A DNA stretch of 64,000 nucleotides from a virus (Duplodnaviria; Caudoviricetes). A model generated the notes under the pieces. The model saw only the letters and a program-made list of their open reading frames with translations, searched no databases and was not told the DNA's origin. Positions 13,854-46,070 of this stretch are shown here, piece by piece; within the stretch, counting starts at the first letter, position 1; the number at the start of each line of letters is the position of its first letter. Both the position numbers and the translations under genes were made by a program. The DNA lies in IMG/VR virus record IMGVR_UViG_2706795240_000001, positions 1 through 64,000 of that record; one strand, 5' to 3'.

Positions 13854-13893
13854 GTCTCATTTAAATATCATCAAGCCTAGAAAGGGCAATAAG

Positions 13894-14499
13894 ATGACCG
13901 CACCACAGGGCACCACCGATATCACCTCGCTCGACTACGGCAAGACCGCAGAGCAGATTGCAGCAGATAAGAACGCTGCCGAGCAGGGTTTCCAGAGCAC
14001 TCGTCCCGTTTTCGTTGATTACTGGGGCAAGGATATCACCAAGAAGTTTTATTTCCCCGGCCAGGAAGATGTTCCCGAGGAATACAAGCAGTACATCGAA
14101 TACAAGCCCATGACCGAAGGCGCTCGCGCTCGTTTCCAGAAGAAAACGAACCGTGGCGTCGTCATCGAGTCGAGCACCCAGAATGCTCGAATGGGCATGG
14201 ACCCGGCTGGCGACCGTAAGGCCCTTTTTGAAGAGTCGGTTGTCGACTGGAAGTTCGCGAAGGGCCAGACGCTTGTCGACTTCTCGTTCCGCAAGTTCAT
14301 GGAGTGGTACGAGGGCGCAAATCCGAAGATCGTTGATGATCTTGAGCGTGAAATCCGCGAGAATAACGAGTGGATGCTGAACGAGCTTTCGTCTGAGGCA
14401 ATTCAGAAGGAAATCGACAGCCTCTACGAGCGCAAGGCCGAGGCCGAAAAGCGCGAGGCGCGTGAGGCGGATTTCGACAGCAAGCGCAACGCTTTGTAA
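13894..14499 (+). CDS. Tail assembly chaperone (short form, 201 aa)
   Basis: Between MTP and TMP. Likely start is ATG 13894 (MTAPQG) after AAAGGG; the track start at 13834 lies inside the hairpin. Confidence 0.8.
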   Translation: MTAPQGTTDITSLDYGKTAEQIAADKNAAEQGFQSTRPVFVDYWGKDITKKFYFPGQEDVPEEYKQYIEYKPMTEGARARFQKKTNRGVVIESSTQNARMGMDPAGDRKALFEESVVDWKFAKGQTLVDFSFRKFMEWYEGANPKIVDDLEREIRENNEWMLNELSSEAIQKEIDSLYERKAEAEKREAREADFDSKRNAL

Positions 14500-14756
14500 A
14501 GGGCGAAGAGGTTCCAAATCCTGATCCGCGCATCGTAGCATTTATGATGTGCGAATCAATGAAATGGAATCATCTTCCGATTGCCGGTGGAATTTACGAC
14601 CAGGACCCGGTTCTCATGACTTCGTTCATGACAATCTTTTCCGAACGATCTAAGCACCAGGCAGCCGAAGCTAAAAAGCGCGAACGCGAAGCTAAAAAGA
14701 AACCCAGTTCTGGGTCACGACGGGCATCCCGACCTGCGTCAAGCCGTAAAAGGTAA
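13894..14756 (+). CDS. Tail assembly chaperone, -1 frameshifted long form (~287 aa)
   Basis: The -1 frame is open from 14466 to 14756 and contains KWNHLPIAGGIYDQDP. Candidate slip G GAT TTC at 14469-14475. Confidence 0.7.
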
Positions 14757-14858: not shown

Positions 14859-17800
14859 ATGACTCCAGCAGAACTTAGAATTCTTGTTACGGTTCGATCG
14901 GCTGAGGCTAAAAAGTCTCTTGATGGTCTTCGTCTTATGATGGGCAAGATCGCCGCGCAGACGACGCTTGCCTCTACTGAAATGAAGGCATTCAATGGCG
15001 TTGTCGCCAGCTCGGTTGCTCCGCTTAAGAGTTCCAGTGCAGCAGCCGCAGACCTCGCGGCTCATCTGGCACTAATCGGAAAGAGTAAGGCAGCCGCAAC
15101 CCTTAGCGGAATTGACGCCTCTGCATCCAAGGCTCAGCGTTCCGTTGGGCTTCTTGGTAAAAACGCAACGACAGCAGCGACCGGCCTCAAGGCAATTAAT
15201 ACGGGATCGCAGAATGCAGCCGTTGGCATAAACCGACTCAATAAGAGTTCGGCAGGAATCGAGCGACTTGGCACGGTATTCAAGGGTACCGCAACTGGTG
15301 TCAGGTCGCTTAATACTGCCCTAAACCAGAACACCGTTTCGAGCGCTCGCGCTGTCGGTGGACTGAATTCCGCGAGCGCAGCAGCAGAGCGTGCAGCAGC
15401 CGCCGCGACGGCATCGGCCACCGGGTTTTCCAGCAGCGCAGCCGCCATGGGCGCGATGGGCGCAGCAGGGGCGGTAGCCGGACGGGCAGCCACCGCCGCG
15501 ACTACCGGCGCAGCAGCGGGTGCAGCGGCGCAGGGAACATTTGCACAGCGACTCGCTGGCACGTCCGAGGCGCTGAGAAAACAGGGTTCGCGCGCACAGT
15601 GGGCCGGTCGCCAGATTTCAATGATGTTCACTGCCCCTGTGGCGCTTGCTATTGGCATGGGCGCAAAGTGGCAGCTCGATCTTGAAAAGCAGCAGACTCA
15701 GCTCGCCAAGGTTTACGGTAGAATTGGCGAGGACCAGGACGCCCTCGGAGTCGAGACACAAAAGCTGAATAAATACTTCCGTCTTCTGTCGGATGAGCTT
15801 GGTAATTCTCAGGAAGAAATTACCTCTATCGGTGCGGCATGGGCGCAGGCTGGCAAGAGTGGCGCAGCACTCGCTGAATATACTCGCCTCACTACTGAGG
15901 CAATGATTCTCGGCGATATTACCGCCGATCAGGCTCAGCAGTCGATGACCGCTTTGAGCTTGCAGTGGAATCTTGGTGCAAAGGCATCAAAGATTACCGC
16001 TACAGAATTCATGAACATGAAGGACGCAATTGCAGCGATTAACGTTGCGTCTAACGAGACTCAGGTTTCTTACGCCGACCTTCTCCAAGTCATGGGCCAG
16101 GCCGGTTCAATTGCGCGAACTTCGGGTGCGTCGTTCAAGGAAACCCTTGCAATGGCGACCTCGATTACTCGTGTTACGGGCAACGCTGCAAAGACCGGTA
16201 ATGCGCTTAAGTCGATTTTGACTAATGCCCTTAAGCCGCCAAAGGGTGGCGGCACGGAGTGGATGAAAAAGCTCGGCGTTGACCTGGAAAGTGTTGAGGG
16301 TCGAGCACTCACTTCTTCTCAGCGTATTGAAGTTCTTGCCGAAAATCTTTCTAAGCTGGATCAGCAGGGCCAGGTCGAGGCAATTGGCTCGATGTTTACC
16401 AAGTGGCAGATCAATGCTTTTGCCCAGCTTGGCAAAGATATTCGTCAGGCTCGCATTCAGCTTTTGGGATGGTCGAAAGATATTACGGGAAGCGAAAGGG
16501 CTGCACAGGGTCTATACGACTCCATGACCAGGGCTCTTGGCTCGCCGATGCAAAGTCGTGCAGCGCAGAATGCGTTCAAGGGACTGGAAATCGATATCAA
16601 GGCTGCCGATTACCAGTCCATGAATGCTAATGCCAGGTTCATTCGACTTGCCGATTCTATGCGCGGAATGGATGAGCAGGCACGCAAGGTTAAGCTGGAG
16701 CAGATTTTCGGTCCGGCTAATGTTGGTGCGCTTGATAAGCTGGTTCAGAAGACCAACGAAAATACCGAAGCTCTGGGTAATTATAATCGCGAGATTGCAT
16801 CCACCGGAGATAAGGCAAAAAATCTTGAGCAGTATAAGAAGGAGCTTGACAAGTTCCTAGAGTCGAATCCACAGAAGTTTAAAATTGCTGGCACAATGAT
16901 GAAGAACGCCCTCATGGACGTTGCTGTCATTCTTCTGCCATATATTCTTGCGCTGGCTAAGTCTATTGCGAAAATGGCGCAAGCCTTTGCGAATATGAAT
17001 CCGACTCTCCAAAAGGTCGTTATTGGCTTCCTGGTGTTCCTTGCCCTTGTTGGTCCGCTCGCAATACTGATCGCGAGCTTCAAGGTTCTGTTCGGCGTCC
17101 TCGGCGGCGGAATGGCAAAGCTGATCGGATTTTTTACGGTCACCAGCACGTCGGCAACGGGTGCGACTACATCGCTTTTCCGGTTCAGTGCAGCCGGTCG
17201 CGCAGCCGCGCGCGCCAATAAGGCCGCAGCAGCCGAGATAGCGGGGTCGTCAAAGGTTGGCTTTGGTGCAGCGGCCAAATCTGCAATGACTAGTGCCCGT
17301 ACTACCGTTCGGGAATTTGCAACTGGCGCAAAGGCGGCTGCTGCATCATGGAAGGCCGGAATTCGAGGAATTCCAGTATCTACCAGGATTAATGGCGCTC
17401 AGACCGCCGCTGTTCAGACTCAAAATAATGCAATCATGTTGGCGCGAATCAATGGCGGAATGGCCGCGATTCGTGCTGCACAGGCGCGCGGTGAGCAGGC
17501 TCGCATTTCCACCATCCGCCTTTACGGAAACCTTGCTGCAATTGAGCAGTCGATGGGAATGAAAAAGCAGGCTGCCGCAGTTACCGCCGGTGGCGCAGGT
17601 GTTGTTGCTGCGCAAAAGGGCGTTGGCGCTGCACAGGTTGCTGCTGCCGGTAAATCTGGAACGGCTGCTGGTGCCGCCGCTGGCGCTGGTGCCGCCCGTG
17701 GAATGAAGGGCAAGTTGCCTGGCATTCTTGGAATTCTTGCAACAGTTCTTTTCTTCATTCCTCCAAGCTGGTTTAAGGCCGGTGGCGATGCCGCGAAGAG

Positions 17801-20800
17801 CCTTGGCAAGGGTCTTATGGATGGAATCAAGAATCTTGGTGGAAGCATCAAGAGCCTTATGGGCAGGATGGGAATTACTTCTGCTCGTAGCTTTGGGTCC
17901 GCAATTGCTAGAACGCTTGGCGGAAAGGGCGGTCTGATTGGTGCTGCGATTGCATCAGTTGTTTCCGGCATCGCATTTGCATGGGACGATATCAAGAAGA
18001 TTACCCAAAAGGTCTTTGGCGGGGATTCAAATGTTCCCCTTTTGGCGCGTCCTTTCGTGTGGGCCGTTGAGGTAATCGTTGCTGCTGTTAAGAAGCTGCC
18101 TGACGTAATTGTGGCGGTTTTCCAGGGAATCGTTAGCTTTATCACTAAGGCTGCGAAGAAAATCTACGAGGCATTTAGCTACATTAACCCGTTTGCGCGT
18201 CACTCACCTTCCCTGGTTGAGAATGTGACAAATGGTATGGCTATCGTCACCAGTATTTTTGGTGACGCTTCACGTTCGATTCAGCAGGATATGCGTAATG
18301 CATATGGTGCTATCTACAAGTTCGGTAGTGCAACTGCTGGCCTGAATATGAAGGCCGCAAATATCAAGCGCGATGACGACCTCGGTGCAATAAAAAAGGC
18401 TGATCCTTCTGGCGCAGCAACAAAGGGTTATCTTGAACTTGAGCGCAACGCCAAGAAGCTCGAAGCTAATTCTGTTCGTCTGAACGCGGCATTGCAGAAG
18501 CAGCAGCGAATTGTTGATGCCCTGTCGAACAAGGTGAAGATTGCTGATCGCAATATCGATCAGATGCAGAAGACCATGGAGTCTTTGCAGAAGATTGCAG
18601 ACGCAACCGGCAAGGCTCTTGATTATGCAAAGGAGCAGCTAGAGTACTACGCGAATGCCCCAATTAAGGGTATGCGCGCAATGTCTGACGCTATTTTCGA
18701 GAACGAAATGGCACAGAAGCGTCTACAGCTTGAAATGATGAAGCTGGAAGATGCTGGCGGTAGCATTGATGAAATTACGGATAAGTACGCACGTTTGCAG
18801 GGGCAGATTGAAACCCTGTCCGGCCAGCGTGCGGACCTCCAGCAAAAGGGTGCTGGTAGCGATATTCTTGCCACTTACGACAAGATGATCGCTGATCTTA
18901 AAGCCCAGCAGGGCGCTGCAATTTCCAGCGGACCCGCAAAGGAAATTGAAGAACTGAATAAGTCGCTTGATGATTTGAAGCGCAAGGGTGAAATGCTCGA
19001 CCTTGAGAATTCTCTCAAGTTCGATCCGCTTACGCGACAGATTGATCAGCTCGTAAACACAGAGAAAGAGCTTGACTTCTCGACCATCGTTACCGGTGTG
19101 ACAACCTATAAGGCGCAGGTCGAAGGTCTGACGATTGCAAATAATCTTGCAACCGGCGCTGTTCAGGCTCAGCAGGCTGCAATTGATGCCGCGTCCGCAA
19201 GTCGCGATGCGCTTAATCAGCGGTTGACTCTTGAGCAGGAAAAGCTCGATGGAATCAAGTCTGTTTACGATCAGAATCAGCAGGCCATTACTGACGTACG
19301 CGCAGCAATGGATGAGCTTGTCTCTTCTGCTGGCACGGTTAATCAGAAGATGGAAGAGGTTGCCCAAAAGGCCAAGGATGCCGCCGATAAGGCTGGTGAG
19401 CTTGGTGACAAGTTGGGCGAGCTTGGTGATGCGGATATTGAGGCACCAGACCTTAGCGAGGTTGGTAATTCTCTTGACGACATGATCAGCGACATGGAAA
19501 AGAAGTTTGAGGGCGCTGGACTTTTTGATGGTCTTGGCGAAAAAATCAAGAACTTCTTTGGGGGATTGCCAGGTAAAATTGGCGGATTCCTCGGTAAGGC
19601 CATGGGTGTTATCTGGGACTTCATTAAGAAGCTCCCCGGCGAGCTGGTGCGAGGTATTTCGTATCTGGCAGGCTTCCTGGTTGGCGCAGCCGCGAAACTC
19701 GTCGTGGCTATTATAGTCGGCCTGTACAAGCTGAGCGGAAAGATTGTTGAACTTGTAGACAAGGCTTTTGGATGGATTTGGGAAGTGGGAATTCCCAAGC
19801 TGTGGCAGAAGCTAAAGGACATTGACTGGGGCGGAATGCTGGCCGGTATTTTCACTGGCGAGACATGGGCAAAGCTGGCAATCGCGCTCTGGGATGCCGG
19901 GGTGTGGCTGATCAAGGGCCTGTTCAACGGCATTAAGAGTATGCTGACCAATGTTTGGGACTGGGTCTTTGAAAATATCATCAGGCCAATCATTGACGGC
20001 GTTCGGGACGGCTTTGGTATTGCATCCCCGTCGACGGTCTTTGCCGAAATTGGCAACTGGCTGGTGGAGGGCCTTCTTAAGGGGCTTGTTGACAATATTG
20101 TCAAGGTCTTCACCTGGTTTATGGAGCTGCCTGCAAGGGTTATCACCGCAATTGGAGACTTGGCTGGATTCCTTGGGCGAAAGTTTGGCGAAGCAATTCA
20201 ATGGGTTCGCGATCGACTTCCCGAATGGTGGGAGAAGATCAACAACTTCTTCGGCGGAATTCCCGGAAAGGTTGGCGAACTTCTTGGTGGAATTGGTCGA
20301 GCAATTGGCGACAAGTTCAAGGGTGCCTGGGATTGGGTTTCCAGCAAAATGGAAGACTGGGCGCGCCCGGTTGTGGACTGGTTTAAGCGACTCCCGGACC
20401 TTATCGGAGGAATCTTCGATACGGTCAAGGAAAAGCTCAAGACTCCGATTAACTTTGTTATCGGAACTGTCTACAACAACGGTCTCCGTAAGGTCTGGAA
20501 TAATACAGCTGGCAAGGTTGGTCTTCCGGAAATGGGAGAAGTCCAGCAGCTCGCAAAGGGCGGAAGCGTCGGCAACCGCATAGTCGGACCGGGAACGGGT
20601 ACTAGTGACTCTATTCTCACGACCGCAAAGCCGGGTAGTGAGATTTTCACTGCTCGTGAAGTTGCTAACGCTGGTGGATTTAAGGCACTGGAATCGCTGC
20701 TCGGTCGGATGGGTGTCCGGTCGTTTATGAGCAGCGGCACCGGTGGAGTTCCTGTTGCTCTTAGTAATGGTGAATTCCGTCTTGATCCGACGCAAATTGC

Positions 20801-23800
20801 GCAAATTGGTGGCAGCGCAAAGGTTAAGCAGCTTCGCGCTCAGCTTGCCGCTGGTAATGTTCCTGGTCATGATGTTGGTGGCGATATTATGGACGTCGTT
20901 ACCGGATCGATCAGTAATGTGAAGCAGGGTGCGAAGAACGTTGCGGCATTTGGTGTCGATAAGGCGCTTGATGCTGTTGACGCCCTGATTCCGGATATGC
21001 TGACGCCTCCCGGTGGAGACATTGGCCGTTACCCGCAAAAGGTTTTCGATACGTTCCGCGAGAAGATCATTAATGCGCTTAAGGGTGCGGATGATGTTAA
21101 GCGGTCTGGCAAGAAATTGAATGCGCCTTCTGTTCGGAAATCCGGCTTTGCAACTGGTGGAACCATCCCGTCAACAACCGGCGGAACTGGCGCTACGCCT
21201 TCGACCGCCGATACGTCTACCGGCGCGTCGGCGGCGGCTCCTGGAATTGACCCGGCAACCGGTGCCGGTCTCGTGGAGTCCGTTACCGGCGCAACAGCGG
21301 CGGCGCAAGCAGTCTGGCAGTCGTATTACGCGGCAATTGAGGAAGAACAGCTTACAAATGCAACAACAATGCAGGCTCAGCAGCTTACCGCTGATACTGC
21401 AATGTTGGCGCAGCAGACGGCCACCATCGCCACAATGCAAACTGCGAGCGCGTCTTTCCGTGCCAGCGAAATTGCAGCAGATGCCGCGTATCAAACGACT
21501 CTTGCTGCTCAGGATTTGGCAAGTAAGACCCTGCTGAATTCGCAGCTTGCGACTTTTGTTTCAGCGCAGACCACTCAGTGGGCCGCGTTGCGAAAGTCGG
21601 TTGTGGATACTGCAACCGGAATGAATGCCGACGTTAGCAATCAATTCGAGCTGCTTTCGGAGAACATTCGTAGAACAATTGAAGATGGAATCAACCCGAC
21701 CATCGGTTCGCTGGAGGAATTGCTGAATCGAACGGTTGGCTGGTTTGAGGCTGCATCCAATGATATTGGTGCAATGTGGAGCCAGACTGTTCCGAAGGTT
21801 CAGGACCCGACTCGCGTCATCATTAACGACGTTTACAATAATGGAGTTCGTGTCGCGTGGAGCAAGGTTCATACTTGGCTCGATTTGCCAGAGCTTGACC
21901 AGTTCGTTGCGCCGTTTGCAAAGGGTGGTCAGCTTGGGCCTGAGGGCATGGTTTCGGTTAACTCGCTGAGCAACCCGAATAGCCCGAAGTCCGTGAAGAA
22001 TGGTGGTCCACTTAGGGCCGCTAGCTCGTCGCGAGATTCAACACTGTTCGCTGGTATGCGTGGCGAGTACGTGATGAACAGGAAGATGGTTCAGGGTGCC
22101 GGTGGTATTTCTAACCTGGAGGCATGGCGCAAGGCCACGCTTTCTGGTCGAAAGCCCATCGAGACCGGCGGAACGGTCAATTTCGATGCAGTGCCAGGAT
22201 TCGCTTCTGGCGGTGTTCTCGGAATGGATAAGCGTCCAGAGAACCAGGCCCTTCCCGGCGTTATTCAGGAAGTTCCGGAACGTCTTCGTCCGTATTACAA
22301 CCGCACGTATGACTACGGCGGTGGCGGTCAGCCTGGTCGTGGTTATGACTGCTCGGGCTGGACTGGTGCCGTTCACCAGATTCTTACCGGCGGAAGTCAT
22401 GTCGGTCGAATTTGGTCCACTGAGGTTAATTTCAGTAGCTACGGCTATAAGCGAGGCAATGACGGATACTGGTCGATGGGCGTTCATAACGGCGGCGGCG
22501 GAATGAGTTCGCACACCGCAGGAACGCTCGCTGGCGTTAACTACGAGTCGGGCGGCGCACACAATACGTCCACATGGGGTGGACCTGCCGCCGGTACTAT
22601 TAACCCGCAATTCGAGAATCAGTACTACCTCCCCAGCTTGGGTGGTAAGTTTATCGGAACGCCGGGTGGCGGTGGCGCAGTTGCCATTACTCCGATGCTT
22701 CTCGAAATGTGGGACAAGGAAATGACTCGCGTCAAGGAGGGCATTTCCGGACTCGCGTTTGGGGGAACTATTGGTCAGAATCCGCCTAAGGCATACGATA
22801 AGTTCAATCTTCTCCGTGGGGTTATCGAGAAGAAGGGCAAGGAAAAGGACGCTGCCGCTGCCGCATCCGCAGCAGCTAATTACGGTCAGGGTCCGGAAGG
22901 TTCGTACGGCGGTGGCGTGGAGCGCTGGCGCTCGGTTGTTCATGACGCGCTCGCTCGCGTTGGACAGCCGAAGAGCCTGGACGAAATTACTCTTCGTCGC
23001 ATGAACCAGGAATCGCGCGGCAATCCGCGAGCGATTAACCTGTGGGATTCAAATGCTGCACAAGGAACTCCATCAAAGGGCCTTATGCAGGTTATCGATC
23101 CTACATTCCAGGCTAATCGCGACCCGTCTTTGCCGAACGATATTTGGGACCCAATGGCGAATATCGTTGCATCGATGCGCTACACGCTCGGTCGTTACGG
23201 TTCGCTTCCGGCTGGTTATGGTCGAGCTGGTGGATATGATTCCGGCGGCTGGCTGGAGCCGGGTCTCACGGCGGCGGTTAATGCAACCGGCAAGCCTGAG
23301 GCTATTCTCACGAATACCGACTGGAAGGCCGTTTACAAGGCCGCAATGAAGCCGACGCTTTCCATTGACGATATCGCCAATGGATACGCAAAGGGCATGG
23401 CAAAGGTATTCGGGTTGAATACCGACAAGGAGGTTCAGAAGTCGATTCAGGGCGCAACAGAGGTTGCTCTCCAGGGTCAGAATTCTAAGTGGAATCCGAT
23501 GGTTGTTGACGCAACCGAAGATGTTAAGGCAGAGGCAACAAAGACGACCGAAGCTGTCTATAAGGTGACAGATACGGTTAAGGGTACTGGAAATATCATG
23601 ACCGGTATTCTCGGGGCAACCGAGGATAACAAGAAGGTTCTTGATCAAATGCTCGCGGTTATGAATGCGGGTGCCGGTACTCTTGGTCAAATTGGAGCCA
23701 AGTGGGTTAAGGGCGAAGACGGCAAGGAAGGTAAGTGGGAATATAACGTCACCTTCGGAGCCTTCGCGCCGCTGATCGAATCGATAGCCGGACTGGTCGA

Positions 23801-24419
23801 GAACCTTCCGGATGCAGAGCCGACATATGTTTCTTGGGCTGGTACTAACCGAGAAGTTACCAAGGAAATGCAGCGCGAAAAGCAGATGAATGATCTTGCT
23901 AATAGCTCTAAGGGCTTGTATTACGCCTTTAAGACTATTGCGCCTCCGGTTCTCAGGAGCACGGCAAAGATTGGTGCTGCAATTGAGACGCTGGTTCAGC
24001 AAGACGGTGAAGCATGGGCGATGATTTCGGCGCAGCTTGCGGCAGGTAATCCTACGGCTTATCTTGCGGCGGCGGTGCTTTCGCTCAAGGCTATTCTCAC
24101 TATTCTGCCGCTGGTTATCGAGGCAATCATGTCGATTGGTCCTGCAATTATTGAGTCGCTGATCGCGTACTTCACTAAGTTTGAACCTGACTCGGTCTAT
24201 GCGTATGGTACTTATGAGGCAGCTAACGATGCTGTTGTCAAGAACCAGAACGCGATTCGGAATGGAGCCACCGGCCCCGTTTTCGAGACCCCTTCGGTTC
24301 AGCAGGAACAGCAGAGCTACAATTTCAATTTCTACGGAGATGTTGTGGTTCCGAATGTCACTAATGAGTCCGGCGTCGATACGCTGGTCGGTAACCTTCT
24401 TGGATTGGCAGGTGTCTAG
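14859..24419 (+). CDS. Tape measure protein with NlpC/P60-like and lytic transglycosylase domains
   Basis: 3186 aa, Ala-rich helical. TP901-like core, hydrophobic segments and Trp/Phe-periodic repeats. YDYGG...YDCSG...HTAG (~22300-22640) and NQESRGNPRAINLWDSNA...KGLMQ...ASMRY (~22915-23205). Confidence 0.95.
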   Translation: MTPAELRILVTVRSAEAKKSLDGLRLMMGKIAAQTTLASTEMKAFNGVVASSVAPLKSSSAAAADLAAHLALIGKSKAAATLSGIDASASKAQRSVGLLGKNATTAATGLKAINTGSQNAAVGINRLNKSSAGIERLGTVFKGTATGVRSLNTALNQNTVSSARAVGGLNSASAAAERAAAAATASATGFSSSAAAMGAMGAAGAVAGRAATAATTGAAAGAAAQGTFAQRLAGTSEALRKQGSRAQWAGRQISMMFTAPVALAIGMGAKWQLDLEKQQTQLAKVYGRIGEDQDALGVETQKLNKYFRLLSDELGNSQEEITSIGAAWAQAGKSGAALAEYTRLTTEAMILGDITADQAQQSMTALSLQWNLGAKASKITATEFMNMKDAIAAINVASNETQVSYADLLQVMGQAGSIARTSGASFKETLAMATSITRVTGNAAKTGNALKSILTNALKPPKGGGTEWMKKLGVDLESVEGRALTSSQRIEVLAENLSKLDQQGQVEAIGSMFTKWQINAFAQLGKDIRQARIQLLGWSKDITGSERAAQGLYDSMTRALGSPMQSRAAQNAFKGLEIDIKAADYQSMNANARFIRLADSMRGMDEQARKVKLEQIFGPANVGALDKLVQKTNENTEALGNYNREIASTGDKAKNLEQYKKELDKFLESNPQKFKIAGTMMKNALMDVAVILLPYILALAKSIAKMAQAFANMNPTLQKVVIGFLVFLALVGPLAILIASFKVLFGVLGGGMAKLIGFFTVTSTSATGATTSLFRFSAAGRAAARANKAAAAEIAGSSKVGFGAAAKSAMTSARTTVREFATGAKAAAASWKAGIRGIPVSTRINGAQTAAVQTQNNAIMLARINGGMAAIRAAQARGEQARISTIRLYGNLAAIEQSMGMKKQAAAVTAGGAGVVAAQKGVGAAQVAAAGKSGTAAGAAAGAGAARGMKGKLPGILGILATVLFFIPPSWFKAGGDAAKSLGKGLMDGIKNLGGSIKSLMGRMGITSARSFGSAIARTLGGKGGLIGAAIASVVSGIAFAWDDIKKITQKVFGGDSNVPLLARPFVWAVEVIVAAVKKLPDVIVAVFQGIVSFITKAAKKIYEAFSYINPFARHSPSLVENVTNGMAIVTSIFGDASRSIQQDMRNAYGAIYKFGSATAGLNMKAANIKRDDDLGAIKKADPSGAATKGYLELERNAKKLEANSVRLNAALQKQQRIVDALSNKVKIADRNIDQMQKTMESLQKIADATGKALDYAKEQLEYYANAPIKGMRAMSDAIFENEMAQKRLQLEMMKLEDAGGSIDEITDKYARLQGQIETLSGQRADLQQKGAGSDILATYDKMIADLKAQQGAAISSGPAKEIEELNKSLDDLKRKGEMLDLENSLKFDPLTRQIDQLVNTEKELDFSTIVTGVTTYKAQVEGLTIANNLATGAVQAQQAAIDAASASRDALNQRLTLEQEKLDGIKSVYDQNQQAITDVRAAMDELVSSAGTVNQKMEEVAQKAKDAADKAGELGDKLGELGDADIEAPDLSEVGNSLDDMISDMEKKFEGAGLFDGLGEKIKNFFGGLPGKIGGFLGKAMGVIWDFIKKLPGELVRGISYLAGFLVGAAAKLVVAIIVGLYKLSGKIVELVDKAFGWIWEVGIPKLWQKLKDIDWGGMLAGIFTGETWAKLAIALWDAGVWLIKGLFNGIKSMLTNVWDWVFENIIRPIIDGVRDGFGIASPSTVFAEIGNWLVEGLLKGLVDNIVKVFTWFMELPARVITAIGDLAGFLGRKFGEAIQWVRDRLPEWWEKINNFFGGIPGKVGELLGGIGRAIGDKFKGAWDWVSSKMEDWARPVVDWFKRLPDLIGGIFDTVKEKLKTPINFVIGTVYNNGLRKVWNNTAGKVGLPEMGEVQQLAKGGSVGNRIVGPGTGTSDSILTTAKPGSEIFTAREVANAGGFKALESLLGRMGVRSFMSSGTGGVPVALSNGEFRLDPTQIAQIGGSAKVKQLRAQLAAGNVPGHDVGGDIMDVVTGSISNVKQGAKNVAAFGVDKALDAVDALIPDMLTPPGGDIGRYPQKVFDTFREKIINALKGADDVKRSGKKLNAPSVRKSGFATGGTIPSTTGGTGATPSTADTSTGASAAAPGIDPATGAGLVESVTGATAAAQAVWQSYYAAIEEEQLTNATTMQAQQLTADTAMLAQQTATIATMQTASASFRASEIAADAAYQTTLAAQDLASKTLLNSQLATFVSAQTTQWAALRKSVVDTATGMNADVSNQFELLSENIRRTIEDGINPTIGSLEELLNRTVGWFEAASNDIGAMWSQTVPKVQDPTRVIINDVYNNGVRVAWSKVHTWLDLPELDQFVAPFAKGGQLGPEGMVSVNSLSNPNSPKSVKNGGPLRAASSSRDSTLFAGMRGEYVMNRKMVQGAGGISNLEAWRKATLSGRKPIETGGTVNFDAVPGFASGGVLGMDKRPENQALPGVIQEVPERLRPYYNRTYDYGGGGQPGRGYDCSGWTGAVHQILTGGSHVGRIWSTEVNFSSYGYKRGNDGYWSMGVHNGGGGMSSHTAGTLAGVNYESGGAHNTSTWGGPAAGTINPQFENQYYLPSLGGKFIGTPGGGGAVAITPMLLEMWDKEMTRVKEGISGLAFGGTIGQNPPKAYDKFNLLRGVIEKKGKEKDAAAAASAAANYGQGPEGSYGGGVERWRSVVHDALARVGQPKSLDEITLRRMNQESRGNPRAINLWDSNAAQGTPSKGLMQVIDPTFQANRDPSLPNDIWDPMANIVASMRYTLGRYGSLPAGYGRAGGYDSGGWLEPGLTAAVNATGKPEAILTNTDWKAVYKAAMKPTLSIDDIANGYAKGMAKVFGLNTDKEVQKSIQGATEVALQGQNSKWNPMVVDATEDVKAEATKTTEAVYKVTDTVKGTGNIMTGILGATEDNKKVLDQMLAVMNAGAGTLGQIGAKWVKGEDGKEGKWEYNVTFGAFAPLIESIAGLVENLPDAEPTYVSWAGTNREVTKEMQREKQMNDLANSSKGLYYAFKTIAPPVLRSTAKIGAAIETLVQQDGEAWAMISAQLAAGNPTAYLAAAVLSLKAILTILPLVIEAIMSIGPAIIESLIAYFTKFEPDSVYAYGTYEAANDAVVKNQNAIRNGATGPVFETPSVQQEQQSYNFNFYGDVVVPNVTNESGVDTLVGNLLGLAGV

Positions 24420-42943: not shown

Positions 42944-43212
42944 TTTCTACCCTTTTCTTTTCTGTGATTGCTTACATAGTCGGCGGCGGCGCGCTTACAG
43001 GCTGCACATGCCTCTTCGCCTTTTCTGCGATGATTTTGATATCTAGCTCGCGTGCCATGGGGCGGAAGTGGCCTTATTGGTAAACTGATTTCTCCGGATC
43101 GATACTGTCGCATATACTCCCGATGAGCCGCGCGGCACGGTTCACACGGCACCAATCCTTCTCTGACTTCTCTTCCGTACCCCCTCAATGTTCCGTGCTC
43201 AATATCTTTCAC
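42940..43212 (-). CDS. Small zinc-binding repeat protein (putative DNA-binding)
   Basis: Two copies of HGT-x2-Y...C-x2-C-R/K (HGTLRGY..CEPCR; HGTRARY..CAACK). Confidence 0.7.
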   Translation of the reverse strand: MKDIEHGTLRGYGREVREGLVPCEPCRAAHREYMRQYRSGEISLPIRPLPPHGTRARYQNHRRKGEEACAACKRAAADYVSNHRKEKGRK

Positions 43213-44399
43213 TGGCCCTTCTGCTTAAACTTGAGCTTCGGGGAGTACTTTTTGTTGATCAAAGACTGAATCTGCCTCTTCTGGGAGTCGTCAATCTCGT
43301 CACCCTTTAGCAGTCCGTCCAGGTCGGCCATGTTGAACTTGCCAATTCTGGCGGCGATTTGGGGGCCTACAATCTTGGCGATTGCTGGCTGATTTGACAC
43401 GCCGCGCCGACCTTGCGCGGTTACGTCGACAGTGAAAACCTGACCATCGTCGTCGGTAGCAGTGATCTTGGTTACCTCGGTTTCGCGAGCATAGTTGCTG
43501 ATCACATCTTCGCAATGGCTCATAAGCGACTCAAGAGCTTCTTTCTTGCCCTTTAGCTGACCGTACATCAGCAGCGCCTCTTGCTCATTCATGATCGAAA
43601 GAATTCCGCCCTTGTCGACATGCTCTTTCAGCTTGGGGCAGGTCGATTGAATCGGGCAGAATCGGCAACCAACGCCGAGCTTGTATGGTGCCTTTTCTCG
43701 CGGCATGGCAACAATATTCTGAACGGTCTGCTTAAGTTCTCGCCAGGTCTGTTCGCATTCTGCACGAGTAATGTAGTGACCAACCAGTTCATTGTGTCGA
43801 AGAAGGTCGGCAACCACCCAAACGCCTTCCGGCTTGAGGTGCTTGAATTCGATCATCGCGCACATGGCGTAGATACGGAACTGCTTTTTGGTGGCAACAT
43901 CGTCCACGCTCCAGCGTTCAGCAACCGACTTGTAATCCACGACCCGAATTGCCCTCTCGCCGTCCGGACCCTCAATAAGATCACAACGGTCGAAGATATA
44001 GGTCAGAAGAATATCGTCAACCTGAGTTGGCGTTCGCGTCTTCTTCTCGGTAGAAATAATCTCAACATCAGAAAGGTCGGTGCGTTCCCACCAATTGACA
44101 GTGAGCTTGCGACTATCGGTGTACTCTTCCATGGAAGAATCGGCCACATGGAATTCATCAATAAAAGCCTGATGATGAAGGGCCAGAAGGTGATCCTTAT
44201 CGTTCCAGTCGTGAGTCTTGTTGATATACACGTCGACCACGAAGTTCTCGGCAACGGCGTGACATACGGTGCCAACGGCGGCGCGGGTCGACCCCTGGGG
44301 CTTGGGAATGTAATCGACGTATTCTGCCGCCCACTTCTGGGGACACTGGTCCCACACCAATAGCGAACTGGCGGAAACTGTTCCTGATGCCGGTTTCAT
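43209..44399 (-). CDS. Cas4-like / PD-(D/E)XK exonuclease
   Basis: QCP near the N-terminus, DRCD...VVDYKS...QFRIYA, and CRFCPIQSTC Fe-S cysteines. Confidence 0.85.
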   Translation of the reverse strand: MKPASGTVSASSLLVWDQCPQKWAAEYVDYIPKPQGSTRAAVGTVCHAVAENFVVDVYINKTHDWNDKDHLLALHHQAFIDEFHVADSSMEEYTDSRKLTVNWWERTDLSDVEIISTEKKTRTPTQVDDILLTYIFDRCDLIEGPDGERAIRVVDYKSVAERWSVDDVATKKQFRIYAMCAMIEFKHLKPEGVWVVADLLRHNELVGHYITRAECEQTWRELKQTVQNIVAMPREKAPYKLGVGCRFCPIQSTCPKLKEHVDKGGILSIMNEQEALLMYGQLKGKKEALESLMSHCEDVISNYARETEVTKITATDDDGQVFTVDVTAQGRRGVSNQPAIAKIVGPQIAARIGKFNMADLDGLLKGDEIDDSQKRQIQSLINKKYSPKLKFKQKGQ

Positions 44400-44972: not shown

Positions 44973-45185
44973 TTATTTAGCCTTTCCAGCCCATATTCCG
45001 TGTTTCGATCCTGTGACATTTCTGTAGTCGTCACACTCGTCAAAGACGGGGCACGATCCACATATTTCTTTGGCTATCCTTCTCAGGTCCGATCTGCCTT
45101 TTCCGGGAAAGAACAGGTCGTCCTCGTCGGCGCTAGCCGGACCAGAACCTGCACATGCCGCGTCACGTTTCCATGACTCGTCCAT
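44973..45185 (-). CDS. whiB: WhiB-family Fe-S transcription regulator
   Basis: WKRDAAC...LFFP...AKEICGSCPVFDEC...GIWAG: four Cys plus the G-W-G turn. Confidence 0.92.
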   Translation of the reverse strand: MDESWKRDAACAGSGPASADEDDLFFPGKGRSDLRRIAKEICGSCPVFDECDDYRNVTGSKHGIWAGKAK

Positions 45186-45223
45186 TATGAAGAATCCGGC
45201 CCTTCCTTCGCCTTCGGGTTTTT

Positions 45224-45505
45224 CTAGCCCTTCTCCGCAGACGCATTCTTTGTTGACGGAACCAGTGGGGAGATCGGCGGCGTCAATGGTGACTTTTCTC
45301 CACCAGTAGAGTCCATGCGGTCCGCACTCTTTATGGGTGACGACAATTGGCTCTGATCGTCTGGCGAGTCGTTTACAGACTCCGGTACAGATGAGCCTTT
45401 TGGGGCCTCATCATTGCTCCGAATAGTGAAGTCCTTAAAGTTTTCGTCTGACTTATCTGTATCGGCTGGGCCGACGAAGCTGACTGGATTAAGTTCCTTG
45501 ACCAT
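45224..45505 (-). CDS. Hypothetical protein; N-terminal 36 aa may be frameshift-fused to WhiB
   Basis: ATG 45505 with AAGGA RBS 10 nt after the RusA stop. Contains in-frame C CCA AAA at 45404-45398. Confidence 0.55.
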   Translation of the reverse strand: MVKELNPVSFVGPADTDKSDENFKDFTIRSNDEAPKGSSVPESVNDSPDDQSQLSSPIKSADRMDSTGGEKSPLTPPISPLVPSTKNASAEKG

Positions 45506-45515
45506 GTTTAATTCC

Positions 45516-46070
45516 TTACCACTTATTTGAAACGTTGACTGTGCCACTTGCTTGAATTGCTCGTTGCTCTTCGTATGCTTTAAGGACTTCGATTCTCACG
45601 TCTGGCGAGACATGATTTGCCCAATTATCTGAACCGACTCCACCGGAAACCGTTTCCAGTTTTCCACGAGCAATAATAATGATCATCGGCTCAGTCTCAA
45701 CAGACTGCTCAATTTGTGTGGTCTTGACTGCGATATTAGTTCGGTCGTCTTCCCACGTAACACCAGTTAGAGCGTCCTCGATTAGCTTCTGCATATTGGT
45801 CGCGTCGACAATATTCTTTGTCCGAGTGCGATTTGCTTTATCTTTGTACTGGTCCCGCCGTCGCCACGTTAGAATCTCTAGCGAGTGACCAGGCTCCATA
45901 ATAAAGCCGCCCTGCTCAATAGCCTGTTCTCTAACGGCCTCCTTGAATGCGGCTCCAGCGGCGTCTACACCGGCAACCGGGATGGTTTTCCCACCCTTTC
46001 TGATCGCAGAAAATGGTGGCACTGTCCACGGGAGCGGGTTGATCGGAATCGCAAAAATCTGAGTGATCAT
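45516..46070 (-). CDS. rusA: RusA-like Holliday junction resolvase
   Basis: VDATNMQKLIEDALTGVTWEDD matches D-x-x-N-x-x-K-x3-DAL-x-G-x-x-W-x-DD. Confidence 0.85.
   Translation of the reverse strand: MITQIFAIPINPLPWTVPPFSAIRKGGKTIPVAGVDAAGAAFKEAVREQAIEQGGFIMEPGHSLEILTWRRRDQYKDKANRTRTKNIVDATNMQKLIEDALTGVTWEDDRTNIAVKTTQIEQSVETEPMIIIIARGKLETVSGGVGSDNWANHVSPDVRIEVLKAYEEQRAIQASGTVNVSNKW

Follow-up and report, generated by a model that had tools for sequence, protein, structure and literature searches.

Introduction

The tau and gamma products of E. coli dnaX arise through programmed -1 ribosomal frameshifting, which is stimulated by an upstream internal Shine-Dalgarno (SD) sequence and yields two proteins in a fixed ratio with a common N-terminus. 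An upstream SD-like stimulator is likewise known for frameshifting in the IS3/IS911 family. The rules that the heptamer motif follows in shifts of the IS3/IS911 type are set out in PMC4066793. In tailed phages, the tail assembly chaperones G and GT depend on a programmed -1 frameshift, according to the citation of Xu, Hendrix & Duda 2004 in PMC4524720. It is almost only for such chaperones that programmed frameshifting has been annotated in these phages. Regulators of the WhiB-like (Wbl) type (PF02467), such as WhiB of mycobacteriophage TM4, occur in actinobacteria and actinophages and are ordinarily encoded by a single small ORF with its own start; the hallmarks of the family include a bound [4Fe-4S] cluster and an interaction with region 4 of sigma-A.

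Here we describe an overlap of two frames on the minus strand of a phage genome, found in a window of 64,000 nt from a complete virus record of 77,779 bp. From comparison with the sequences of related phages, we put at about 85% the probability that a programmed -1 ribosomal frameshift at this locus makes a fusion of a four-cysteine (Cys4) module to a WhiB domain. The type of recoding is a known one, and its cargo, a Cys4-WhiB regulator, is unusual.

Results

Layout of the locus

The locus is flanked by a gene for a RusA-like resolvase (45516-46070; Pfam RusA) and one for a RecB/Cas4-like exonuclease (43209-44399). Between them, on the minus strand, the 0-frame ORF (45224-45505) runs from an ATG at 45505 to a TAG at 45226-45224 and encodes 93 aa plus stop. 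A first-pass annotation of the window had credited this ORF with a good ribosome-binding site and a perfect, in-phase slippery heptamer, and both are borne out. An SD sequence, AAGGA (45513-45517, minus), was read 7 nt before the ATG, where it overlaps the RusA stop codon; the heptamer C CCA AAA (45398-45404, minus) is in the X XXY YYZ phase and falls within the 0-frame codons GCC CCA AAA (A34 P35 K36). This heptamer is the proposed site of tandem -1 tRNA slippage.

The WhiB frame, which is -1 relative to this ORF, is shut immediately upstream of the shift site by TGA TGA (45408-45413, minus). After these stops it reads GGC CCC AAA AGG, opening 3 codons before AGG 45398, and no further stop interrupts its 144 codons before that of WhiB at 44975-44973. 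According to the ORF listing, its first ATG, GTG or TTG is the ATG at 45185, which begins a WhiB-like domain ORF of 70 aa plus stop (44973-45185, minus). Upstream of this ATG and in the same frame lies a hidden, start-less extension of 71 codons (45186-45398, minus), from AGG (45398) to ATA (45186), with its first Cys pair in CTGVC (45375-45389, minus) and its second in CVCGEG (45228-45245, minus). The opening of the -1 frame after TGA TGA and the start-less run into the WhiB ATG had also been noted at first pass, and both hold; so does the description of the 0-frame continuation as low-complexity Ser/Pro sequence, the tail 3' of the slip site being rich in Ser, Pro and Glu. A shift at the heptamer would join 36 codons of the 0 frame to 141 of the -1 frame, for a predicted fusion length of 177 aa.

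Two further observations concern the end of the overlap. The 0-frame TAG (45226-45224) sits two nt beyond the last CxCGEG codon of the -1 frame, and the CxCGEG motif, when read in the 0 frame, gives an ASAEK-like sequence that relatives show as well, a by-product of the overlapping frames.

The arrangement resembles that of G and GT in several respects: a putative -1 shift encoded by the phage falls at a heptamer where two ORFs overlap, the second of these is start-less, the N-terminus is common to both predicted products, and it is the position of the arrangement, more than its sequence, that is conserved. Unlike G/GT, however, the WhiB site belongs to the replication/recombination module and not to the tail module, and its product is a regulator and not a chaperone; nor does the site lie immediately 5' of the tape measure ORF (14859-24419). 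Upstream of the tape measure gene, the phage's own tail chaperone region (14431-14520, plus) has a G ORF at about 13891-14499 and a T frame, -1 relative to it, that is open from 14466. In the 34-nt G/T overlap (14466-14499) no canonical X XXY YYZ heptamer was found, only GAT TTC and GCT TTG TAA; judged by its motif, the putative WhiB shift site is clearer than this phage's own G/T site. The tape measure ORF (plus) encodes 3186 aa, which is unusually long for a 78-kb siphovirus-type genome.

Conservation of the proposed shift site in related phages

Relatives were found by blastn and tblastn against deposited phage genomes, and the same region is present in Gordonia, Rhodococcus and Tsukamurella phages of 73-83 kb. 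Thirteen lineages were read base by base together with the window, giving 14 lineages that reach down to approximately 31% identity over the product of the WhiB frame; they are related to one another, and the counts given here are not fully independent. In all 14, the frame that encodes the Cys-rich segment and WhiB is start-less and lies -1 relative to an overlapping upstream ORF, which does have a start, and a canonical heptamer is in the X XXY YYZ phase with the 0 frame. SD sequences equivalent to that of the window precede the 0-frame starts of Jumbo and Gmala1. The neighbourhood is similar as well: the upstream neighbour encodes RusA in Jumbo, Gmala1, GordDuk1, Camerico, Mbo2 and Reynauld and a DNA methyltransferase in TIN4, GMA7, ReqiDocB7, Demosthenes and Perlina, while the downstream neighbour in relatives is a RecB/Cas4-type exonuclease gene.

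Two heptamers are used. Nine lineages have xxC CCA AAA G (window, Jumbo, Gmala1/GordDuk1, Camerico, Orchid/RobinSparkles, Mbo2, ReqiDocB7, Perlina and Reynauld), and the remaining five have xxC CCT TTA G at the homologous codon (TIN4, GMA7/GTE7, Demosthenes/Katyusha, Woes and L018). The exchange of CCCAAAA for CCCTTTA swaps the amino acids (PK/KR to PL/FR) and keeps slipperiness and phase. CCA and AAA are minor codons in the genes of these phages, with a joint synonymous share of 0.03-0.10, and CCT with TTA is rarer still (0.000-0.013). These minor codons are fixed at the heptamer in all lineages, and the codon before always ends in C. Since the phase of the heptamer and the layout of the frames recur in 14 diverged lineages, using minor codons, the arrangement is more than would be expected by chance; the heptamer is conserved across diverged relatives against synonymous drift. 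A window-wide control of in-frame heptamers was dominated by spurious ORFs that overlap real genes. Both heptamers are on a list of those that shift to -1 in vivo at rates above 0.10% with no stimulator present, and V_VV.A_AA.R is among the most efficient heptamer classes (PMC4066793), these efficiencies being values for E. coli and not for Gordonia.

The first-pass annotation had named a 1-nt indel, natural or introduced by sequencing, as the alternative, which would have split a single longer gene. Such an indel could be a sequencing or assembly error or a recent mutation, the true gene being fused in frame. The shift does lie in a C4A4 run, a type of sequence whose length is miscalled on some platforms. 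Against this stands the tBLASTn survey of relatives that the same annotation had proposed: the slippery site is kept, a -1 shift is needed in 14/14 lineages, those with CCCTTTA included, and none of the 14 carries an in-frame fusion. Every relative examined shows the same need, although these genomes were sequenced independently, in several laboratories and over several years. When tblastn was run with the extension only, 15, 75 and 16 phage records were returned for three sequence types, in partly overlapping sets, so that about 100 phage records match it; among the matches listed, the extension always falls under an overlapping 0-frame CDS. Given the recurrence of the -1 requirement in 14/14 lineages, a sequencing error or indel was rejected as extremely improbable.

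Transcriptional slippage would have RNA polymerase add one base within C4A4, and part of the mRNAs would then encode the fusion in frame. The site does hold short C4 and A4 homopolymers, and the protein outcome would be identical, which means that comparative data cannot fully separate the two mechanisms. Known bacterial transcriptional slippage sites, however, need runs of about 7-9, and the runs here are short for polymerase slippage: in the five lineages with CCCTTTA they are of only 3 (of 4 where the codon before has CC at its end, namely in TIN4, GMA7 and Demosthenes), and strict phase is kept nonetheless. This second heptamer contains no long homopolymer and so speaks against sequencing error as well as transcriptional slippage. 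Moreover, tandem slippage on the ribosome requires the 0-frame phase that is invariant in 14/14 lineages, whereas polymerase slippage does not. We infer that it is the ribosome, and not RNA polymerase, that shifts, and regard slippage during transcription as very unlikely.

In the window, Jumbo, Gmala1 and Orchid, the -1-frame stop lies only 2-3 codons before an invariant Arg, so close that there is no room for another entry point. This bears on the proposal that the extension is started at a non-canonical codon of the -1 frame (e.g., CTC or ATC), or by other unrecognised initiation, without any frameshifting. In these four phages just 3 sense codons (GGC CCC AAA) would be available before the invariant Arg, and the nearby SD-like motifs are unusually placed for initiation. 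Such a start also leaves unexplained both the conserved, in-phase heptamer of minor codons and its swap for a second heptamer; we consider it highly improbable.

Selection on the overlapping frames

The -1-frame proteins of 12 lineages were aligned. The order of invariant elements is P, R, C, G, C, an insert of variable length, P, C-x-C-G-E-G and the WhiB residues, and the invariant residues of the extension are C7, G9, C11, C55, C57, G58, E59 and G60. Among lineages, the Cys codons of the -1 frame switch between TGT and TGC and the Gly codons among GGA, GGC, GGG and GGT; at the same columns the 0-frame reading shifts non-conservatively (E, V or A). In two conserved blocks across the 14 lineages, nucleotide entropy peaks at the third positions of the -1 frame (1.14 and 1.18 bits versus 0.53-0.86), and amino-acid entropy is lowest in this frame.

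Pairwise dN/dS values (Nei-Gojobori) were obtained for the 135 nt of overlap that align without gaps in the window, Jumbo and Gmala1. They are 0.44-0.73 for the -1 (WhiB) frame, 1.08-1.27 for the 0 frame and 1.59-2.27 for the third (+1) frame. The first-pass annotation had listed a 71-aa frame free of purifying selection among the findings that would count against a shift; such selection is present. Because Cys, Gly and Glu are invariant and variation falls at third positions of the -1 frame, the comparison shows a stretch of 71 codons that is evidently under purifying selection and translated in the -1 frame.

The 0-frame tail, by these same measures, is unconstrained at the amino-acid level. 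Synonymous-codon shuffles of the -1 frame gave no sign of selection for a long 0-frame tail (P = 0.07-0.92 per lineage). No clear switch of GC3 to the -1 frame is seen after the site, a measure that is not decisive here because the third position of the 0 frame is the first position of the -1 frame and stays G+C-rich. 5' of the slip site, the constrained frame is the 0 frame, with the motifs NP(V/I)xF and DF(R/T/S)P(K/R) kept in otherwise diverged leaders. These motifs (45398-45505, minus) resemble a short linear interaction motif and are carried by both predicted products.

Predicted products of the two frames

The C-terminal part of the 144-aa frame matches the WhiB family of Pfam (PF02467) at residues 79-141, with 46.5 bits against a cut-off of 23.6, and is also matched by PHROG WhiB families. 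Its Cys pattern is C-x30-C-x2-C-x5-C, with C85, C116, C119 and C125 invariant, and the G(V/I)WGG-type turn reads GIWAG in the window and GIWGG in relatives. The C-terminal 70 aa are therefore like other Wbl proteins in exceeding the Pfam threshold, in the four-Cys Fe-S pattern and in the GIW-G turn. On these sequence features the C-terminus is a bona fide Wbl domain, for which a role as a [4Fe-4S] regulator is predicted. Unlike in an ordinary Wbl protein, the domain would be preceded by a 71-aa Cys4 module and, from a different frame, by a 36-aa leader. Neither among 1.84 billion representative proteins nor among the genomes of 185,579 bacterial species was a Wbl protein with this Cys4 module found.

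The Met at the WhiB start is not conserved, being replaced by A, Q, E or V in other lineages. In the window the ATG at 45185 is preceded by GGAAGGG at 14 nt, which is poor SD spacing; the internal WhiB starts annotated in relatives are mostly without an SD, and a usable WhiB start is absent in Orchid-type and Woes-type phages. Some independent initiation of WhiB at ATG 45185 could in principle take place in this phage, although it would be neither needed nor general. These data also bear on the simplest account of the locus, namely two ordinary genes, a 93-aa ORF and a 70-aa WhiB begun at ATG 45185, with the intervening -1 frame left untranslated. The ATG and the distant GGAAGG would fit this account, and public annotations show the region in this way or leave it blank. 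However, the -1 frame is open in all lineages, its invariant Cys, Gly and Glu and its third-position variation indicate that the 71 codons are translated, and neither the WhiB Met nor, in Orchid-type and Woes-type phages, a usable start is retained. There is consequently very little chance that two separate genes account for the locus. The short forms suggested at first pass fare differently from one another: the 93-aa 0-frame product is to be expected, while WhiB made from ATG 45185 is doubtful, with its SD 14 nt away and its Met not conserved.

The extension itself is a four-Cys module, CxGxC...CxCGEG. Searches with it were negative throughout. Pfam returned only WhiB, at E up to 0.1, and none of the PHROG families covers residues 1-74. 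No called protein with the extension was found by word-indexed search among 5.8 billion clusters, its profile gave only 2 spurious repeat-protein matches in 1.84 billion representative proteins, and the ESM Atlas returned no match. Among the 185,579 bacterial species genomes, matches were to WhiB only and none had the four-Cys module. Against the PDB, the best E of a profile search was 0.43; in fold searches with a model of the extension, the best E from Foldseek was 3.6 and VIA-align gave no Z of 2 or more. An AlphaFold model of the 143-aa product from an 8-row alignment was poor (pLDDT 43). Modelled alone, the extension reached a modest pLDDT of 66, and in this model the two Cys pairs flank a beta hairpin, which is compatible with a small metal-binding knuckle. 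By sequence and by model, then, the extension is apparently an orphan module, matched by no known family or fold. The label "zinc finger", given to the Cys-rich segment at first pass, goes beyond these results, in which the four-Cys module matches no curated profile or solved fold.

The 0-frame product of the window matches phrog_14812, a family without assigned function, and the 0-frame ORFs of relatives likewise belong to PHROGs of unknown function. In Demosthenes (L011:765-1217), TIN4 (L008:768-1193) and GMA7 (L009:756-1169), the 0-frame ORF is called an endonuclease by RefSeq and phrog_6890; the product in these three phages is a short leader with TAF-containing repeats and a low-complexity tail. 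No nuclease domain was found in the window's counterpart of this ORF, and the name endonuclease for the Demosthenes/TIN-type ORF looks unsupported on the sequences compared.

Candidate stimulatory elements

A stimulatory RNA structure would be expected 5-9 nt downstream of the heptamer. No conserved stem-loop or pseudoknot, nor any element of unusual stability, was detected downstream in single-sequence folds of 8 lineages or with RNAalifold for 5. Shuffle z-scores for the folds of 98-nt segments ranged from -2.4 to +1.1. The sole consensus hairpin is weak (-7.4 kcal/mol) and begins right at the heptamer's last A (spacer 0); its conservation is attributable to that of the peptide.

Upstream, an SD-like GGAG (45417-45420, minus) lies 12 nt 5' of the heptamer in the window and is a candidate stimulator. 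GGAG or GAGG occurs 5-18 nt upstream of the heptamer in 9/14 lineages, against 1.6 expected at the same loci, and the lineages without either carry GGGGG or GGTGG. This upstream GGAG/GAGG resembles the internal SD stimulators of dnaX and IS911. Its enrichment is suggestive of an SD-like sequence that may help shifting from upstream; we go no further than suggestive because the spacing varies, from 4 to 13 nt.

In other respects the resemblance to these two systems is partial. As with OrfA and OrfAB of IS3/IS911, canonical heptamers are used, and a short 0-frame product is accompanied by a longer trans-frame fusion that adds a functional domain. In contrast to IS3/IS911, the WhiB locus is without a transposase, an HTH domain, inverted repeats or a mobile element, and no conserved stem-loop or pseudoknot was detected downstream of its shift site. 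In dnaX, it is the shorter of the two proteins that comes from the shift, and a strong hairpin follows the site, whereas at the WhiB site the predicted product of the shift is the longer, functional one and no conserved hairpin was found.

Public annotations and literature

The feature tables of 15 phage records, among them records from 2024-2025, contain no joined CDS at this locus. The 2024-2025 records either leave the WhiB part as a gap without annotation or reduce it to a 33-aa stub; in all, the 15 feature tables and the features under the extension matches listed give a truncated WhiB, a start-less gap or the unsupported endonuclease. In Rhodococcus phage Mbo2 (L007:1283-1486), the annotated WhiB start comes after the first conserved Cys and 3/4 cluster ligands are left, this loss being caused by a start codon forced onto a start-less frame. 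A full-text literature search found no description of a WhiB frameshift, and papers on these phages mention only tail-chaperone or IS3 shifts. Most likely, over a hundred related phage records share the recoding event with this Gordonia-type phage, and public annotations overlook it.

Discussion

The proposition of the first-pass annotation, that programmed frameshifting produces a fusion of approximately 177 aa between a Cys-rich segment and WhiB, is supported by a heptamer kept in 14/14 lineages and by 71 codons that are under purifying selection. In the mechanism that we propose, ribosomes would initiate at ATG 45505 and translate 36 codons. At C CCA AAA, tRNA-Pro in the P site and tRNA-Lys in the A site would re-pair one base back, on CCC AAA, and a fraction of the ribosomes would go on in the -1 frame to make the 177-aa protein. 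This protein would consist of the leader motif peptide, the orphan four-cysteine module CxGxC...CxCGEG and the Fe-S regulator domain of WhiB. Unshifted ribosomes would make the 93-aa protein, in which the same N-terminus is followed by an unconstrained tail rich in Ser and Pro. The long product would be the minority and the short one the majority. By analogy with dnaX and with OrfA/OrfAB of IS3, the shift probably keeps the long WhiB at a low dose that stands in a fixed ratio to the short N-terminal protein.

A different reading of the same data would make the shift a regulated sensor and not a fixed-ratio device, with the Cys4 module as a second metal or redox centre of WhiB. Both types of heptamer put a minor codon, AAA or UUA, in the A site, and these codons are rare in high-GC actinobacterial hosts. 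With a minor codon in the A site, the efficiency of the shift, and with it the dose of long WhiB, could follow the host's tRNA supply or growth state, in a manner that may be likened to bldA/UUA control. We hold this joint reading to be unlikely. If it were true, the orphan Cys4 module would define a phage-only class of Wbl regulators that exist solely by way of recoding.

Taken together, the comparisons point to a second conserved recoding site in tailed phages, one that would control a transcription regulator in a large and well-curated group of Gordonia, Rhodococcus and Tsukamurella phages. The site would hide a protein module that no gene caller has reported and that is hence missing from protein databases, and the phage annotations at this locus would need correcting. 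It would also provide a simple and testable example of how the ribosome can set the dose of a regulator. More generally, start-less conserved frames that lie 3' of in-phase heptamers deserve systematic searching in phage genomes.
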